A stretch of 64,000 nucleotides of DNA, from the NCBI RefSeq assembly GCF_041886205.1, contig NZ_CP169029.1; one strand, written 5' to 3'. Positions 8,740-59,025 of the stretch are shown here, piece after piece; within the stretch, counting starts at the first letter, position 1, and each line of letters begins with the position of its first letter. The position numbers were made by a program, and so were the translations under genes. The notes under the pieces are model-generated. The model searched no databases, had not been told where the DNA came from, and was given only the letters and a program-made list of their open reading frames with translations. Origin of the DNA: Escherichia coli (GTDB lineage Bacteria > Pseudomonadota > Gammaproteobacteria > Enterobacterales > Enterobacteriaceae).

Positions 8740-8790
8740 ATTGGGGCCGTCCCCGGTGAAAAGACGCGTTTGCAGGTCGTCCTGCAAAGC
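8740..8790 (-). promoter_or_regulatory. guanidine-II (mini-ykkC) riboswitch in gdx 5' leader
   Basis: two hairpins with ACGR tetraloops on the mRNA strand: GCAGG-ACGA-CCTGC (8772-8785) and GGGG-ACGG-CCCC (8743-8754), just upstream of a GGAG SD and the gdx ATG. Confidence 0.7.
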
Positions 8791-22968: not shown

Positions 22969-23044
22969 GCCCGGATAGCTCAGTCGGTAGAGCAGGGGAT
23001 TGAAAATCCCCGTGTCCTTGGTTCGATTCCGAGTCCGGGCACCA
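22969..23044 (+). tRNA. pheU: tRNA-Phe (GAA anticodon)
   Basis: GCCCGGATAGCTCAGTCGGTAGAGCAGGGGATTGAAAATCCCCGTGTCCTTGGTTCGATTCCGAGTCCGGGCACCA; called pheU rather than pheV from yjdC flank. Confidence 0.97.
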
Positions 23045-30011: not shown

Positions 30012-31103
30012 ATGCGTTTTCTGCGCCGACCAATATCGCTGCGCCAACGGCTGATATTGACCATCGGGGCCATTTTGTTGGTGTTTGAGCTGATCAGCGT
30101 CTTCTGGCTATGGCATGAAAGTACCGAGCAGATTCAGCTGTTTGAGCAGGCGCTACGCGACAATCGCAACAACGATCGCCACATCATGCGTGAGATCCGC
30201 GAGGCGGTCGCCAGCCTGATTGTCCCCGGCGTCTTTATGGTCAGCCTGACGCTATTTATCTGCTATCAGGCGGTACGCCGCATCACCCGCCCGCTGGCGG
30301 AGCTGCAAAAAGAGCTGGAAGCGCGCACCGCCGACAACTTAACGCCCATTGCCATTCACAGCGCCACCCTCGAAATCGAAGCGGTGGTTTCGGCGTTAAA
30401 CGATCTGGTCAGTCGCCTGACCAGCACGCTGGATAACGAAAGGTTGTTTACCGCTGACGTCGCGCACGAACTGCGAACGCCACTGGCGGGGGTGCGTTTG
30501 CATCTGGAACTGCTGGCGAAAACGCATCACATTGATGTAGCACCGTTAGTGGCACGGCTTGATCAGATGATGGAGAGCGTCTCCCAGCTGCTGCAACTGG
30601 CGCGTGCCGGACAGTCATTTTCTTCCGGTAATTATCAACATGTAAAACTGCTGGAAGATGTCATTCTCCCCTCGTATGACGAACTCAGTACCATGCTCGA
30701 CCAGCGACAGCAAACCCTGCTATTGCCAGAGAGCGCCGCCGACATCACCGTTCAGGGTGATGCAACCCTGCTGCGGATGTTATTGCGAAACCTGGTAGAA
30801 AACGCCCATCGTTACAGCCCGCAAGGCAGCAACATTATGATTAAGCTGCAAGAAGATGACGGAGCGGTCATGGCAGTTGAAGATGAAGGACCAGGTATTG
30901 ATGAGAGTAAATGCGGGGAGTTGAGTAAAGCGTTTGTACGTATGGACAGCCGTTATGGCGGGATTGGTCTGGGGTTAAGTATTGTCAGCCGCATTACACA
31001 GTTGCATCACGGGCAGTTTTTCCTGCAAAACCGGCAAGAGACTTCCGGCACGCGGGCCTGGGTACGGCTGAAGAAAGATCAGTACGTGGCAAACCAGATA
31101 TAA
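30012..31103 (+). CDS. basS: sensor histidine kinase BasS (PmrB)
   Basis: about 363 aa from MRFLRRPISLRQR...; H-box ADVAHELRTP; ATPase domain. Confidence 0.95.
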   Translation: MRFLRRPISLRQRLILTIGAILLVFELISVFWLWHESTEQIQLFEQALRDNRNNDRHIMREIREAVASLIVPGVFMVSLTLFICYQAVRRITRPLAELQKELEARTADNLTPIAIHSATLEIEAVVSALNDLVSRLTSTLDNERLFTADVAHELRTPLAGVRLHLELLAKTHHIDVAPLVARLDQMMESVSQLLQLARAGQSFSSGNYQHVKLLEDVILPSYDELSTMLDQRQQTLLLPESAADITVQGDATLLRMLLRNLVENAHRYSPQGSNIMIKLQEDDGAVMAVEDEGPGIDESKCGELSKAFVRMDSRYGGIGLGLSIVSRITQLHHGQFFLQNRQETSGTRAWVRLKKDQYVANQI

Positions 31104-31168
31104 AGAAAGCTGCTGACCACCAGCACGCTGAACACGGTAGTTAAACTTTCATAAACACGGTTTTTCAT
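31079..31168 (-). CDS. pmrR: small membrane protein PmrR
   Basis: 29-aa ORF MKNRVYESLTTVFSVLVVSSFLYIWFATY, hand-translated, antisense and overlapping the basS 3' end. Confidence 0.75.
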   Translation of the reverse strand: MKNRVYESLTTVFSVLVVSSFLYIWFATY

Positions 31169-31279
31169 TGCACTCTCCTCCGTTAACCTGGAGGAGAGTA
31201 TGCGCGTCAGAGATTAAGTGAACCTTAAGAGTTCAATTGGCCTGATAAGACAGCGTCACATCAGGCCATCCGTTTCAGC

Positions 31280-36899: not shown

Positions 36900-37082
<183 letters not shown>

Positions 37083-39550: not shown

Positions 39551-39640
39551 CGTAGGTCGGATAAGACGCCCCGGCGTCGCATCCGACAATGTGCAGGCGT
39601 TGATGCCGGATGCGGTGCAAGCACCTTATCCGGCCTACAG
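39551..39640. repeat. REP units between phnD and phnE
   Basis: GTAGGTCGGATAAGACGC...GCATCCGACA and GCCGGATGCGG...CTTATCCGGCCTAC. Confidence 0.85.
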
Positions 39641-47773: not shown

Positions 47774-48532
47774 ATGAGCCTGACCCTCACGCTCACCGGC
47801 ACCGGCGGCGCACAGGGCGTTCCGGCATGGGGCTGCGAGTGTGCGGCCTGCGCCAGAGCGCGGCGCTCGCCGCAGTATCGCCGCCAACCGTGCAGCGGCG
47901 TAGTGAAGTTTAACGACGCAATCACCCTGATCGACGCCGGGCTGCACGATCTCGCCGATCGTTGGTCGCCCGGATCGTTCCAGCAGTTTTTGCTGACGCA
48001 TTATCATATGGATCACGTCCAGGGGCTGTTTCCGCTGCGCTGGGGCGTTGGCGATCCGATCCCGGTTTACGGCCCGCCGGATGAACAGGGCTGCGACGAT
48101 CTGTTTAAACATCCGGGCCTGCTTGATTTCAGCCACACGGTGGAACCGTTTGTGGTGTTTGATTTGCAGGGGTTACAGGTCACGCCCCTGCCGCTCAACC
48201 ACTCAAAACTGACCTTCGGTTATCTGCTGGAAACGGCACACAGCCGGGTGGCGTGGCTGTCTGACACCGCAGGCTTGCCGGAAAAAACGCTGAAATTTTT
48301 ACGCAATAATCAGCCGCAGGTAATGGTGATGGATTGCAGTCACCCGCCGCGCGCGGATGCACCGCGTAATCACTGTGATTTAAATACCGTGCTTGCGCTG
48401 AATCAGGTTATCCGCTCGCCACGGGTGATTCTGACCCATATCAGCCACCAGTTTGATGCGTGGCTGATGGAAAACGCACTACCGTCAGGGTTTGAGGTGG
48501 GGTTTGATGGGATGGAGATTGGGGTGGCGTGA
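47774..48532 (+). CDS. phnP: phosphoribosyl cyclic phosphodiesterase PhnP (metallo-beta-lactamase fold)
   Basis: 252 aa; HxHxDH motif ([10 protein letters not shown]). Confidence 0.94.
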
Positions 48533-48540
48533 TGAGAGGG

Positions 48541-48660
48541 AATGTGCGCGCTGGCCCCCTCACCCTAACCCTCTCCCCAGAGGGGCGAGGGGACCGATTG
48601 TGCTCGATATTGAATATTGCGCTCGTTTTCTCCCTCTCCCCATTGGGGTGAGGGGCGATG
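48541..48660. repeat. paired G/C-rich palindromic intergenic repeats (BoxC-like)
   Basis: two copies of CCCTC(A/T)CCC...GGGG(C/T)GAGGGG-type imperfect palindromes; family name uncertain. Confidence 0.4.
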
Positions 48661-48678
48661 CCTGCTCCATACCCAACC

Positions 48679-49008
48679 TCATCGCCCATACTCATCTTCC
48701 ATTCTCCGCTCTTCATCCTCCAGTTGCCGACGCTCCTGATCAAGCTGGCGCTGGCGATCGTCCAGCTGCCTGCGGCGATCTTCAAACTGGCGGCGGCGGT
48801 CGTCATATTGTCTGCGCCGATCGTCGCTCACTTCACGCTGCCAGCCGTCGTCGCGCGAATCTTCATAGTCTCGCCCACGGTCAGGGTTATAAGCGTCATT
48901 AATCGCCTGCTGAATATTGCCAATGGTGTCGTCGATAATATCGGCCTGGGCCGGAACGGTGGACAGCGTGAGCAGGGTGAATAAAAGAAATAGCGGAAAG
49001 CGTTTCAT
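48679..49008 (-). CDS. yjdP: secreted low-complexity protein YjdP
   Basis: 109 aa; signal peptide MKRFPLFLLFTLLTLSTVPAQA followed by D/E/R/Q-rich repeats. Confidence 0.8.
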   Translation of the reverse strand: MKRFPLFLLFTLLTLSTVPAQADIIDDTIGNIQQAINDAYNPDRGRDYEDSRDDGWQREVSDDRRRQYDDRRRQFEDRRRQLDDRQRQLDQERRQLEDEERRMEDEYGR

Positions 49009-49076
49009 TAGCCAACCTCAAAAAGAAACTCTATCCACATTAATCATTACTCATCCATGCAAGTAGTGGATGAATC

Positions 49077-49394
49077 TCAATTTCTCCGCTGCTCTATTGC
49101 CGTAATCGCCTCCACGCGTTGTTGATGACGACCGCCTTCGTACTGTGCGCCCAGCCACGCATCCACAATCATTTTTGCCAGTTCGAGGCCAACCACTCGT
49201 GAACCAAAAGCCAGTGCAACTTCACTGGCGTAATGCGGATAATCAGTGCGCTCTGACGACCTGGTTTCTTTATCAATCCCCTCACTCATTGACCATGAAT
49301 AAAAGGCTGGCACAGCAACACAGAATCCTGCGGTGCCAGCGACATGACCGCCCATTGCTCCGGTACGTTTTTTAATAAAAAACACCGGTTGCAT
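49077..49394 (-). pseudogene. rpiB: rpiB-like remnant (ribose-5-phosphate isomerase B fragment)
   Basis: 105-aa ORF; C-terminal about 60 aa (SSERTDYPHYAS...FGSRVVGLELAKMIVDAWLGAQYEGGRHQQRVEAITAIEQRRN) match my recollection of RpiB; the catalytic-loop segment is missing and the N-terminal 40 aa are unrelated. Confidence 0.6.
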
Positions 49395-49646
49395 TGATTA
49401 ATTGTGCTCAGTATTTGCCGAAGTACAATATATATAATAAATATATAAAACACCTCATATTATTTACAGAGATAATAAATTCGCGTACTTTTCCCTCTTC
49501 AGCACAAATGCCTAATAAAATGGCGCGTTCAGCTCACACTTCCACTTATTAAAGTCGCAATTTCCCAATTATGATAACGCCAGCTTTAAATGACGTATTT
49601 TGCATGGATTACATATTTACGACATAAATGATAAATGGAGATTTAT

Positions 49647-51632
49647 ATGAATAACTCTCGGTTATTCCGTTTGAGCAGGATTGTTATTGCGTTAACTGCC
49701 GCCAGCGGCATGATGGTAAATACCGCTAACGCGAAAGAGGAAGCGAAAGCCGCCACTCAATATACCCAACAGGTTAATCAGAATTACGCCAAATCATTAC
49801 CGTTTAGCGATCGTCAGGATTTTGACGATGCCCAGCGTGGATTTATCGCCCCGCTGCTGGATGAAGGTATTCTGCGTGATGCGAACGGTAAAGTTTACTA
49901 CCGCGCGGACGATTACAAATTTGATATTAATGCCGCAGCGCCGGAAACCGTAAACCCCAGCCTGTGGCGTCAGTCGCAAATCAACGGTATTTCTGGCCTG
50001 TTCAAAGTCACCGATAAAATGTATCAGGTGCGCGGCCAGGATATCTCTAACATTACGTTCGTTGAGGGCGAGAAAGGCATTATTGTTATTGACCCACTGG
50101 TGACGCCACCTGCCGCAAAAGCCGCACTTGACCTTTACTTCCAGCATCGTCCGCATAAACCGATTGTTGCCGTTATCTACACTCACAGCCACACTGACCA
50201 CTATGGTGGCGTGAAAGGTATTATCTCTGAAGCCGATGTTAAATCCGGCAAAGTTCAGGTGATTGCCCCTGCAGGCTTTATGGACGAAGCCATCAGCGAA
50301 AACGTGCTGGCGGGTAACATCATGAGCCGCCGTGCGCTCTACTCTTACGGTCTGTTACTGCCGCACAACGCGCAAGGCAACGTGGGTAATGGCCTTGGCG
50401 TGACGCTGGCAACGGGCGACCCGAGCATTATTGCACCGACTAAAACTATCGTCAGAACTGGCGAGAAGATGATTATTGACGGCCTGGAGTTTGACTTCCT
50501 GATGACCCCAGGTAGCGAAGCGCCAGCCGAAATGCACTTCTATATTCCGGCCCTGAAAGCCCTGTGTACCGCCGAGAACGCCACGCATACCCTACACAAC
50601 TTCTACACTCTGCGCGGCGCGAAAACCCGCGATACCAGCAAGTGGACCGAGTACCTGAACGAAACGCTGGATATGTGGGGTAACGACGCGGAAGTCCTGT
50701 TTATGCCGCACACCTGGCCGGTCTGGGGCAATAAGCATATCAATGATTATATTGGTAAATATCGCGATACTATCAAGTACATTCACGACCAGACCCTGCA
50801 CCTGGCGAACCAGGGCTACACCATGAATGAAATCAGCGACATGATTAAGCTGCCGCCTGCACTTGCCAATAACTGGGCCAGCCGTGGCTATTACGGTTCT
50901 GTCAGCCACAACGCCCGCGCGGTGTATAACTTCTATCTTGGCTATTACGACGGTAACCCGGCTAACCTGCATCCGTATGGTCAGGTGGAGATGGGTAAAC
51001 GTTACGTGCAGGCGCTGGGCGGTTCTGCCCGTGTCATCAACCTAGCGCAAGAAGCGAACAAGCAAGGTGATTACCGCTGGTCGGCAGAACTGCTGAAACA
51101 GGTGATTGCCGCCAACCCGGGTGACCAGGTCGCGAAGAATCTGCAAGCGAATAACTTTGAACAGCTGGGCTATCAGGCCGAATCCGCCACCTGGCGCGGT
51201 TTCTACCTGACCGGCGCGAAAGAGCTGCGCGAAGGGGTGCATAAGTTCAGCCACGGCACCACCGGTTCCCCGGACACCATTCGCGGGATGTCGGTCGAAA
51301 TGCTGTTCGACTTTATGTCCGTTCGCCTCGATAGCGCGAAAGCCGCGGGTAAAAATATCAGCCTGAACTTCAATATGAGCAATGGCGATAACCTCAACCT
51401 GACGCTGAACGATAGCGTGCTTAACTACCGTAAAACACTGCAATCCCAAGCTGACGCCTCTTTCTACATCAGCCGTGAAGATCTGCACGCCGTGCTAACC
51501 GGGCAAGCCAAAATGGCGGATCTGGTAAAAGCGAAGAAAGCCAAAATTATTGGCAATGGCGCGAAACTGGAAGAAATTATCGCCTGTCTGGATAATTTCG
51601 ATTTGTGGGTGAATATCGTAACCCCAAATTAA
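49647..51632 (+). CDS. yjcS: putative alkyl/aryl sulfatase YjcS (metallo-beta-lactamase plus SCP2-like domains)
   Basis: 661 aa from [13 protein letters not shown]...; signal peptide; HSHTDH metal motif. Confidence 0.9.
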
Positions 51633-56877: not shown

Positions 56878-59025
56878 ATGAAAAAAGTCGTCACGGTTTG
56901 CCCCTATTGCGCATCAGGTTGCAAAATCAACCTGGTCGTCGATAACGGCAAAATCGTCCGGGCGGAGGCAGCGCAGGGGAAAACCAACCAGGGTACCCTG
57001 TGTCTGAAGGGTTATTATGGCTGGGATTTCATTAACGATACCCAGATCCTGACCCCGCGCCTGAAAACCCCCATGATCCGTCGCCAGCGTGGCGGCAAAC
57101 TCGAACCTGTTTCCTGGGATGAGGCACTGAATTACGTTGCCGAGCGCCTGAGCGCCATCAAAGAGAAGTACGGTCCGGATGCCATCCAGACGACCGGCTC
57201 CTCGCGTGGTACGGGTAACGAAACCAACTATGTAATGCAAAAATTTGCGCGCGCCGTTATTGGTACCAATAACGTTGACTGCTGCGCTCGTGTCTGACAC
57301 GGCCCATCGGTTGCAGGTCTGCACCAATCGGTCGGTAATGGCGCAATGAGCAATGCTATTAACGAAATTGATAATACCGATTTAGTGTTCGTTTTCGGGT
57401 ACAACCCGGCGGATTCCCACCCAATCGTAGCGAATCACGTAATTAACGCTAAACGTAACGGGGCGAAAATTATCGTCTGCGATCCGCGCAAAATTGAAAC
57501 CGCGCGCATTGCTGACATGCACATTGCACTGAAAAACGGCTCGAACATCGCGCTGTTGAATGCGATGGGCCATGTCATTATTGAAGAAAATTTGTACGAC
57601 AAAGCATTCGTCGCTTCCCGTACAGAAGGCTTTGAAGAGTATCGTAAAATCGTTGAAGGCTACACGCCGGAGTCGGTTGAAGATATCACCGGCGTCAGCG
57701 CCAGTGAGATTCGTCAGGCGGCACGGATGTATGCCCAGGCGAAAAGCGCCGCCATCCTGTGGGGCATGGGTGTAACCCAGTTCTACCAGGGCGTGGAAAC
57801 CGTGCGTTCTCTGACCAGCCTCGCGATGCTGACCGGTAACCTCGGTAAGCCACATGCGGGTGTTAACCCGGTTCGTGGTCAGAACAACGTACAGGGTGCC
57901 TGCGATATGGGCGCGCTGCCGGATACGTATCCGGGATACCAGTACGTGAAAGATCCGGCTAACCGCGAGAAATTCGCCAAAGCCTGGGGCGTGGAAAGCC
58001 TGCCAGCGCATACCGGCTATCGCATCAGCGAGCTACCGCACCGCGCAGCGCATGGCGAAGTGCGTGCCGCGTACATTATGGGCGAAGATCCGCTGCAAAC
58101 TGACGCGGAGCTGTCGGCAGTACGTAAAGCCTTTGAAGATCTGGAACTGGTTATCGTTCAGGACATCTTTATGACCAAAACCGCGTCGGCGGCGGATGTT
58201 ATTTTACCGTCAACGTCGTGGGGCGAGCATGAAGGCGTGTTTACTGCGGCTGACCGTGGCTTCCAGCGTTTCTTCAAGGCGGTTGAACCGAAATGGGATC
58301 TGAAAACGGACTGGCAAATCATCAGTGAAATCGCCACCCGTATGGGTTATCCGATGCACTACAACAACACCCAGGAGATCTGGGATGAGTTGCGTCATCT
58401 GTGCCCGGATTTCTACGGTGCGACTTACGAGAAAATGGGCGAACTGGGCTTCATTCAGTGGCCTTGCCGCGATACTTCAGATGCCGATCAGGGGACTTCT
58501 TATCTGTTTAAAGAGAAGTTTGATACCCCGAACGGTCTGGCGCAGTTCTTCACCTGCGACTGGGTAGCGCCAATCGACAAACTCACCGACGAGTACCCGA
58601 TGGTACTGTCAACGGTGCGTGAAGTTGGTCACTACTCTTGCCGTTCGATGACCGGTAACTGTGCGGCACTGGCGGCGCTGGCTGATGAACCTGGCTACGC
58701 ACAAATCAATACCGAAGACGCCAAACGTCTGGGTATTGAAGATGAGGCATTGGTTTGGGTGCACTCGCGTAAAGGCAAAATTATCACCCGTGCGCAGGTC
58801 AGCGATCGTCCGAACAAAGGGGCGATTTACATGACCTACCAGTGGTGGATTGGTGCCTGTAACGAGCTGGTTACCGAAAACTTAAGCCCGATTACGAAAA
58901 CGCCGGAGTACAAATACTGCGCCGTTCGCGTCGAGCCGATCGCCGATCAGCGCGCCGCCGAGCAGTACGTGATTGACGAGTACAACAAGTTGAAAACTCG
59001 CCTGCGCGAAGCGGCACTGGCGTAA
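56878..59025 (+). CDS. fdhF: formate dehydrogenase H (selenoprotein; UGA140 = Sec)
   Basis: 139-aa ORF and 559-aa ORF are in the same frame, separated only by TGA at 57295-57297; N-terminal CPYCASGC Fe-S motif; 715-aa molybdoenzyme. Confidence 0.96.
57295..57340 (+). promoter_or_regulatory. in-frame UGA Sec codon plus SECIS stem-loop of fdhF
   Basis: TGACACGGCCCATCGGTTGCAGGTCTGCACCAATCGGTCGGTAATGGC immediately 3' of UGA. Confidence 0.85.

Follow-up and report, generated by a model that had tools for sequence, protein, structure and literature searches.

The spacer between the convergent genes phnP and yjdP of the analysed Escherichia coli DNA (the window, i.e. the whole stretch of 64,000 nt) holds a pair of BoxC repeats, which is real, non-random and already known, and which does not represent a new kind of element. 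In the explanation that we hold to be probable, with moderate confidence, it is a head-to-head BoxC pair composed of an intact type-A copy (element 1) and a deleted type-B copy (element 2), which serves as a deletion substrate at the DNA level and whose C-rich-strand hairpin would set the mRNA end at the RNA level. The additions made in this study are small: the recognition of element 2 as a truncated type-B partner, a series of deletions at this locus and an orientation-specific hint from Term-seq data.

Location of the repeat pair

Both the list of open reading frames (ORFs) and the RefSeq annotation place phnP at 47774-48532 (plus strand) and yjdP at 48679-49008 (minus strand), in convergent orientation. 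The spacer between them has 146 nt (48533-48678) and comprises both elements, which are therefore intergenic, as is required of BoxC/PIT/TMECO repeats (strictly intergenic). A pair of G/C-rich palindromes between these genes had been reported in a preliminary description of this DNA, and its observation is confirmed: the strings CCCTCACCCTAACCCTCTCCCCAGAGGGGCGAGGGGAC (start at 48557) and TCTCCCTCTCCCCATTGGGGTGAGGGGCG (start at 48629) are found exactly, and the 64 kb of the window contain two occurrences of the pattern CCCTCTCCCC-N3-6-GGGG[ACT]GAGGG vs 0.00 expected (100 dinucleotide-preserving shuffles). The similarity ascribed to the two elements is correct as far as a 24-nt direct repeat with 88% identity is concerned (48569-48592 vs 48632-48655, one copy per element); it does not extend to their architecture, as element 1 has three blocks and element 2 is a truncated type-B copy. 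The coordinates of the features are presented in Table 1. When the spacer is folded as a whole, the AT-rich inverted repeat located between the elements gives a small hairpin in the interior of the structure.

Table 1. Features of the phnP-yjdP spacer (positions in the window).
Feature	Position	Strand	Basis or remarks
phnP stop codon	48530..48532	+	23 nt upstream of element 1; ORF list, RefSeq annotation of identical sequence
Element 1 core, complete BoxC/PIT/TMECO copy, type A 'mm'	48556..48591	-	published-consensus regular expression; no. 22 of Holder et al.
Conserved 5' flank of type-A BoxC	48592..48605	-	minus strand GAGCACAATCGGTC, plus strand GACCGATTGTGCTC; flank alignment
Predicted 3' end zone of the phn operon mRNA	48595..48603	+	4-12 nt after the hairpin of element 1; analogy with sister copies
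Spacer between elements 1 and 2 (GATATTGAATATTGCGCTC)	48606..48624	.	small AT-rich inverted repeat
T-rich 5' flank GTTTTCT, typical of type-B BoxC	48625..48631	+	flank alignment
Element 2, truncated type-B BoxC, CCCTCTCCCC-ATT-GGGGTGAGGGG	48632..48655	+	two-block regular expression only
yjdP stop codon	48679..48681	-	23 nt from element 2; ORF list, RefSeq annotation

Across both elements runs an ORF of 40 aa (48529-48651, plus strand, GTG start), which was rejected as a gene candidate and is most likely a spurious product of the repeat sequence. The last 45 nt of phnP (48488-48532) are G-rich and internally repetitive (GGGTTTGA occurs twice), and the 3' end of this gene contains ATTGGGGTG, a 9-nt exact match to the loop and G-block of element 2 (48642-48650). 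In B2-type strains PhnP has a different C-terminus, i.e. …EIEVE vs …EIGVA. The end of the phnP gene may have been reshaped by the adjoining repeat.

Element 1 is a published member of the BoxC family

BoxC elements, known since 1992, are G/C-rich intergenic repeats of about 50 bp, composed of one CCCTCNCCC block and two GGGNGAGGG blocks. The family has been treated by Bergler et al. 1992, Bachellier et al. 1999, Hoyne et al. 2000 and Holder et al. 2015. In the last of these (PMC4666352), TMECO is equated with BoxC (Bergler 1992) and with the PIT element (Hoyne et al. 2000). Its consensus is given there as CCCTCNCCC-N3-6-GGGNGAGGG-N3-GGGNGAGGG, with 23 strict copies in strain MG1655 (Holder et al. 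2015; PMC4666352). Used as a regular expression, this consensus has a sole match in the window, at 48557-48591 (minus strand), within element 1.

On the minus strand, element 1 reads CCCTCGCCCC-TCT-GGGGAGAGGG-TTA-GGGTGAGGGG (in full, CCCTCGCCCCTCTGGGGAGAGGGTTAGGGTGAGGGG), i.e. one C-block and two G-blocks, which together provide four G-runs. Its plus strand is composed of three blocks (C-rich, C-rich and G-rich), CCCCTCACCC-TAA-CCCTCTCCCC-AGA-GGGGCGAGGGG. Positions were converted to MG1655 coordinates by subtracting the window position from 4,362,876 (phnP ends at 4,314,344 in NC_000913.3), and element 1 is identical at 36/36 positions with TMECO no. 22 (MG1655 4,314,285-4,314,320). It also corresponds to HPGQ 51 of Kaplan et al. 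2016 (PMC5100583), whose midpoint is given there as 4,314,309, in the yjdP-phnP interval. By exact sequence match, element 1 is thus the published BoxC/PIT/TMECO copy no. 22, or HPGQ 51, and the dispersed, BoxC-like repeat family that the preliminary description had proposed with some hesitation is the correct one.

That description had also stated that the elements are not REP/PU units, and indeed no naRNA4/REP-type Rfam match was found at this site: within 48000-49300, a search with a permissive threshold yielded chance-level matches only (E = 4-9, far under the gathering scores). The RefSeq record NC_000913.3 carries no repeat feature and no REP at the phnP-yjdP site.

The dispersed character of the sequence is evident from a 51-nt query around element 1: of 5,426 complete E. 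coli genomes, 5,425 have matches, and the number of places per genome has a median of 19 and reaches 34. Of such BoxC-like places in E. coli genomes, 359 are located on plasmids, and TMECO nos. 3 and 4 (within MG1655 281,950-282,290 and 289,100-289,430, respectively) lie inside the annotated cryptic prophage CP4-6. These prophage and plasmid copies are hard to square with the published view that there is no association between the motif and mobile elements. The flank of TMECO no. 3 also carries a truncated type-A partner (CCCCAAAGGGGAGAGGGGACTGCACCGAGC).

The two types of copies were compared in a flank alignment of 20 rows, of which 11 are type A (10 from MG1655, including the K-12 yjdP-phnP copy, and one from strain 19A14) and 9 are type B (8 from MG1655 and one from 19A14). 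All type-A rows (n = 11, with a TTA loop) share ...GNGCNC-N4-5-CGGTC directly 5' of the C-block. In the type-B rows, with a CCG, TCG or CTG loop, TTTTCT or TTTTCC stands directly 5' of the C-block in 7/9 cases, and for their HPG2 class Kaplan et al. 2016 (PMC5100583) described a T-rich stretch of 4 conserved nt that precedes the C-rich region. The TTA loop and the GAGCACAATCGGTC flank assign element 1 to type A, and its core and 5' flank together form a unit of about 50 nt.

Element 2, a probable deletion derivative of type B

Element 2 retains one C-block and one G-block, and the middle G-block and the CCG loop are absent. In strain 19A14 the corresponding site is occupied by a type-B copy that is complete and lies on the plus strand (CCCTCGCCCCATTGGGGAGAGGGCCGGGGTGAGGGG, with the CCG loop); this orthologue matches the three-block consensus, whereas element 2 of the window does not. 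Compared with 19A14, the window shows a 12-nt gap (GGGGAGAGGGCC), with GGGG microhomology at 48645-48648, and, besides this gap, a G-to-T change in the C-block. Given the complete copy in 19A14, element 2 is most likely a deletion derivative, i.e. a type-B copy whose middle G-block has been lost by a 12-nt deletion between GGGG repeats, with the polarity of the change read from the family consensus and the pairing rule and not from an outgroup.

According to this rule, paired copies are always composed of type A and type B on opposite strands (Holder et al. 2015; PMC4666352). Here, a type-A copy (minus strand) and a type-B copy (plus strand) face each other head-to-head, 40 nt apart. From the type-specific flanks, the 19A14 allele and the pairing rule taken together, we read the arrangement in the window as a degenerate type-A/type-B pair. 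The truncated form of element 2 is the common allele (about 3,085 records), and both G-blocks are kept at this site, in a full or fused allele, in 151 of the 5,426 genomes.

Deletion alleles of the phnP-yjdP spacer

Spacer alleles were sampled across E. coli, and seven of them were fetched and aligned, with deletions defined relative to the full pair. These are: (i) a 12-nt deletion in the window and K-12-like allele, with GGGG microhomology, (ii) a 63-nt deletion in L004 (ST38), with GAGGG microhomology, by which both elements are fused into one long four-block palindrome, (iii) an 82-nt deletion in L005, with GAGGGGCGA microhomology, and (iv) a 124-nt deletion in L007, with GGG microhomology. 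In two further alleles, L006 and L008, nearly all or all of the repeat is gone, and the alignments are too diverged for placement of the junctions; in L008, an O25b:H4 strain, the spacer has 27 nt, a length also seen in B2/ST131-type strains. Every well-defined breakpoint falls inside a repeat block.

This series fits slippage or microhomology-mediated deletion at repeat blocks, and the strain alleles show that, at the DNA level, the blocks act as substrates for these processes. Raised variability around TMECO loci, described in terms of 'genomic instability' and the 'palindrome effect', was reported by Holder et al. 2015 (PMC4666352), and the phnP-yjdP locus is a concrete case of it. A miniature transposable element (MITE), suggested by a pair with 36-nt inverted arms, was also considered; this reading was not adopted, as the comparison of the filled allele (19A14) with the BoxC-free one (L008) gave no clear target-site duplication in an ambiguous alignment with 13 mismatches.

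RNA 3' ends at type-A copies

The phn operon, a part of the Pho regulon, is silent in LB and in high-phosphate M63. The 61-nt sequence of every 3' end in Supplementary file 1 of Adams et al. 2021 (PMC7815308) was searched, and in this dataset, which covers LB and high-phosphate M63 glucose only, no 3' end is recorded for phnP, yjdP or positions 43142xx/43143xx. As regards the RNA 3'-end mapping to which the preliminary description had pointed, none is thus recorded at phnP-yjdP in these phosphate-replete data. In the same data, 3' ends follow five sister type-A copies (all from PMC7815308): (i) 164,636 (plus strand; hrpB), 5 nt after the type-A hairpin, (ii) 3,781,065 (plus strand; lldD, classed as 'primary'), 4 nt after it, (iii) 624,567 (minus strand; fepB leader), 12 nt after it, (iv) 632,098 (plus strand; cstA), 11 nt after it, and (v) 4,231,270 (minus strand), 4 nt after the hairpin of a degenerate type-A copy. 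Our reading of the 3'-end table is confirmed by the published TMECO coordinates, with which these offsets are consistent.

In all five cases transcription runs through the copy in the C-rich orientation, as phnP transcription does through element 1. Strings of the G-rich orientation (CCCTCGCCCC and GGGAGAGGGTTA) were found zero times within -50/+10 nt of any recorded 3' end. The orientation bias therefore amounts to 5 vs 0 cases, and a library bias against G-rich structured ends could explain it. Most type-A copies in the C-rich orientation, e.g. those facing hemB, tusA, aaeR, frlR and fimH, have no 3' end in this dataset. The lldD end lies inside a significant Rho termination region, and its intrinsic-terminator score is 1.32 (threshold 3.0).

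At fepB, the leader has a very abundant 3' end at 624,680 (minus strand; read count 243,213; Adams et al., PMC7815308), which precedes by 4 nt a BoxC copy of type B (TMECO no. 8) whose transcription would run in the G-rich orientation. As this end is upstream of the type-B copy, hairpin protection does not explain it. A second fepB end is placed 12 nt after the type-A partner (MG1655 624,430-624,830 region).

By analogy with the five sister copies, whose ends all occur in the C-rich orientation, the 3' end of the phn mRNA is predicted at 48595-48603. Transcription of the C-rich strand of the type-A copy would produce a G-poor, C-rich tract and then a stable GC hairpin, and in the phn mRNA the hairpin of element 1 most probably defines or shields a 3' end that lies a few nucleotides beyond it. 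Transcription would probably end further downstream through Rho, and 3'-to-5' exonucleases would then shorten the RNA as far as the hairpin.

A wider proposal, which we regard as tentative and rather doubtful, is that type-A BoxC copies in general are orientation-specific determinants of RNA 3' ends that operate without a U-tract, in which the G-free, C-rich tract may load Rho and the hairpin would fix the end 4-12 nt further on. If this is true, element 1 would define the mRNA 3' end of the 14-gene phn operon, and selection for that role in RNA or structure would account for the near-identity of the core across distant phyla. The 3' ends found in one orientation at type-A copies, together with the deletion series at phnP-yjdP, could feed into this question of what the family does, although both come from small numbers of cases and from published data.

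Alternative explanations

A possible, although on balance unlikely, explanation is that the pair is a neutral or selfish relic, which is tolerated in a 3' spacer and decays by deletion, with the sister 3' ends being incidental, as any stable hairpin stops exonucleases. The state of the locus agrees with this: most genomes carry element 2 in its truncated form, the pair is partly or wholly missing from many strains (among them the B2/ST131-type strains with the 27-nt spacer), and no transcript end is recorded at phnP-yjdP in the phosphate-replete data of Adams et al. Moreover, published work detected neither promoter nor terminator activity and found the elements unconnected with gene function. 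The coincidence of five sister copies with mapped 3' ends, all in one orientation, speaks against a mere relic, and so does the conservation of the core.

Regarding the latter, a scan of 100,044 species genomes with the TMECO pattern, whose listed matches come from five genomes, found the same three blocks in distant genomes. Among the matches listed are Mitsuaria chitosanitabida (Burkholderiales), with 145 copies and 25 head-to-head pairs, a Methylomirabilota metagenome-assembled genome (MAG) with 13 copies, and a Contendobacter MAG and an unclassified MAG in which the three-block pattern is present. In these listed matches, the variable positions are near-fixed (T/G in the C-block; A and T in the first and second G-blocks, respectively), and the loops and flanks are lineage-specific, which would suggest convergence rather than horizontal spread. 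The wide distribution of BoxC/TMECO was already published (Holder et al. 2015; PMC4666352). Judged by the matches listed, the BoxC core hardly varies between E. coli, Burkholderiales and Methylomirabilota, and such near-identity with fixed variable positions in very distant bacteria is hard to obtain by drift alone.

A regulatory structure formed by the DNA itself is improbable. In this explanation, the G-rich strand of element 1, when transiently single-stranded, would switch to an intrastrand purine-motif triplex or a G-quadruplex and thereby regulate replication, recombination or flanking transcription. Isolated TMECO oligonucleotides do form very stable triplexes, as seen by CD and NMR, with melting at 70-82 C (Holder et al. 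2015; PMC4666352), and a K+/Mg2+-dependent switch between quadruplex and hairpin was observed in vitro (Kaplan et al. 2016; PMC5100583). Judging from sequence, the fixed A of the first G-block and T of the second would fit A·A-T and T·A-T triads. However, DMS footprinting in vivo showed no guanine protection, and only duplex was formed when the complementary strand was present (PMC4666352). Furthermore, the published distances of TMECO copies to neighbouring ORFs show no regulatory pattern. At this locus, element 1 alone keeps the three blocks, and thus the four G-runs, that a triplex or G-quadruplex of the kind folded by oligonucleotides in vitro would need. Element 2, with its two blocks and two G-runs, can form a hairpin only, and yet this truncated form is the majority allele.

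Strong RNA hairpins are predicted on both strands, for element 1 (-23.2 kcal/mol in the phnP sense; -32.3 kcal/mol in the yjdP sense, z = -3.6) as well as for element 2 (-18.8 kcal/mol on the plus strand and -16.3 kcal/mol on the minus strand). The preliminary description had suggested that they could constitute a bidirectional terminator, and a site between convergent genes, 23 nt from each stop codon, is typical of one; nevertheless, a bidirectional intrinsic (Rho-independent) terminator of phnP and yjdP is not supported and is very improbable, since none of the four hairpin readings (both elements, both strands; tails ACCGAUUG, CGAUGCCU, AGAAAACG and GCCAGCGC) is followed by a U-tract, a promoter/terminator scan of 48533-48678 found no terminator-like site, the sister copy at lldD scores below the threshold, the ilvC/ppiC transcripts run past their type-B BoxC copy and end at a separate, canonical hairpin-plus-U terminator, and reporter assays of Hoyne & Maher 2002, as reported by Holder et al. 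2015 (PMC4666352), revealed no promoter or terminator activity and left RNA polymerase unaffected.

Other features of the window

Downstream of yjdP the window departs from the K-12 arrangement. The genes rpiB, alsR and alsB come after yjdP in MG1655, whereas in the window there is an rpiB remnant (a 105-aa ORF, 49077-49394, in which the RpiB C-terminus is kept and an internal deletion is present), the alsRBACEK operon is absent and yjcS (49635-51632) comes directly next. The junction found in the window (region 49077-49634) is common to 1,568 of the 5,426 genomes. Rfam matches above the gathering score in the window include a Guanidine-II riboswitch (8742-8788, minus strand), a tRNA (22969-23041, plus strand), the sRNA STnc630 (31072-31237, minus strand) and a SECIS_2 element (57290-57344, plus strand).

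Comparison with known systems

REP/BIME elements resemble BoxC in being short, G/C-rich, imperfectly palindromic intergenic repeats that are often found in 3' UTRs. REPs have an established role as exonuclease-blocking hairpins, similar to the role proposed here for BoxC. They differ in that they constitute an unrelated sequence family, whose consensus is not present at phnP-yjdP. In contrast to the BoxC pair, three matches to Rfam naRNA4 (REP-derived, nucleoid-associated RNA) exceed the gathering score in the window, within 36903-37079 and 39555-39635.

Within the BoxC family, HPG1 and HPG2 of Kaplan et al. 2016 (PMC5100583) correspond to type A and type B, respectively, and pairs on opposite strands were noted in that study as well. 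The element was interpreted there as a switch between G-quadruplex and hairpin; element 2, having two G-runs, cannot form a quadruplex. The closest counterpart of element 1 is TMECO no. 22 itself, as the 36-nt sequence, the MG1655 coordinates, the intergenic location and the type-A flanks are the same, with no difference. In the published TMECO table no. 22 is given as a single element, and its type-B partner 40 nt away, i.e. element 2, is unlisted because it fails the three-block pattern.

For the arrangement as a whole, the best parallel is the lldD-trmL pair (TMECO nos. 17 and 18). There, both partners are intact and a Term-seq 3' end is located 4 nt after the type-A hairpin, whereas at phnP-yjdP the type-B copy is truncated and no such end is recorded. 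In both pairs, a type-A copy, a spacer and an opposite-strand type-B copy follow one another with the C-blocks facing, and in both of them the upstream gene reads the type-A copy in the C-rich orientation.
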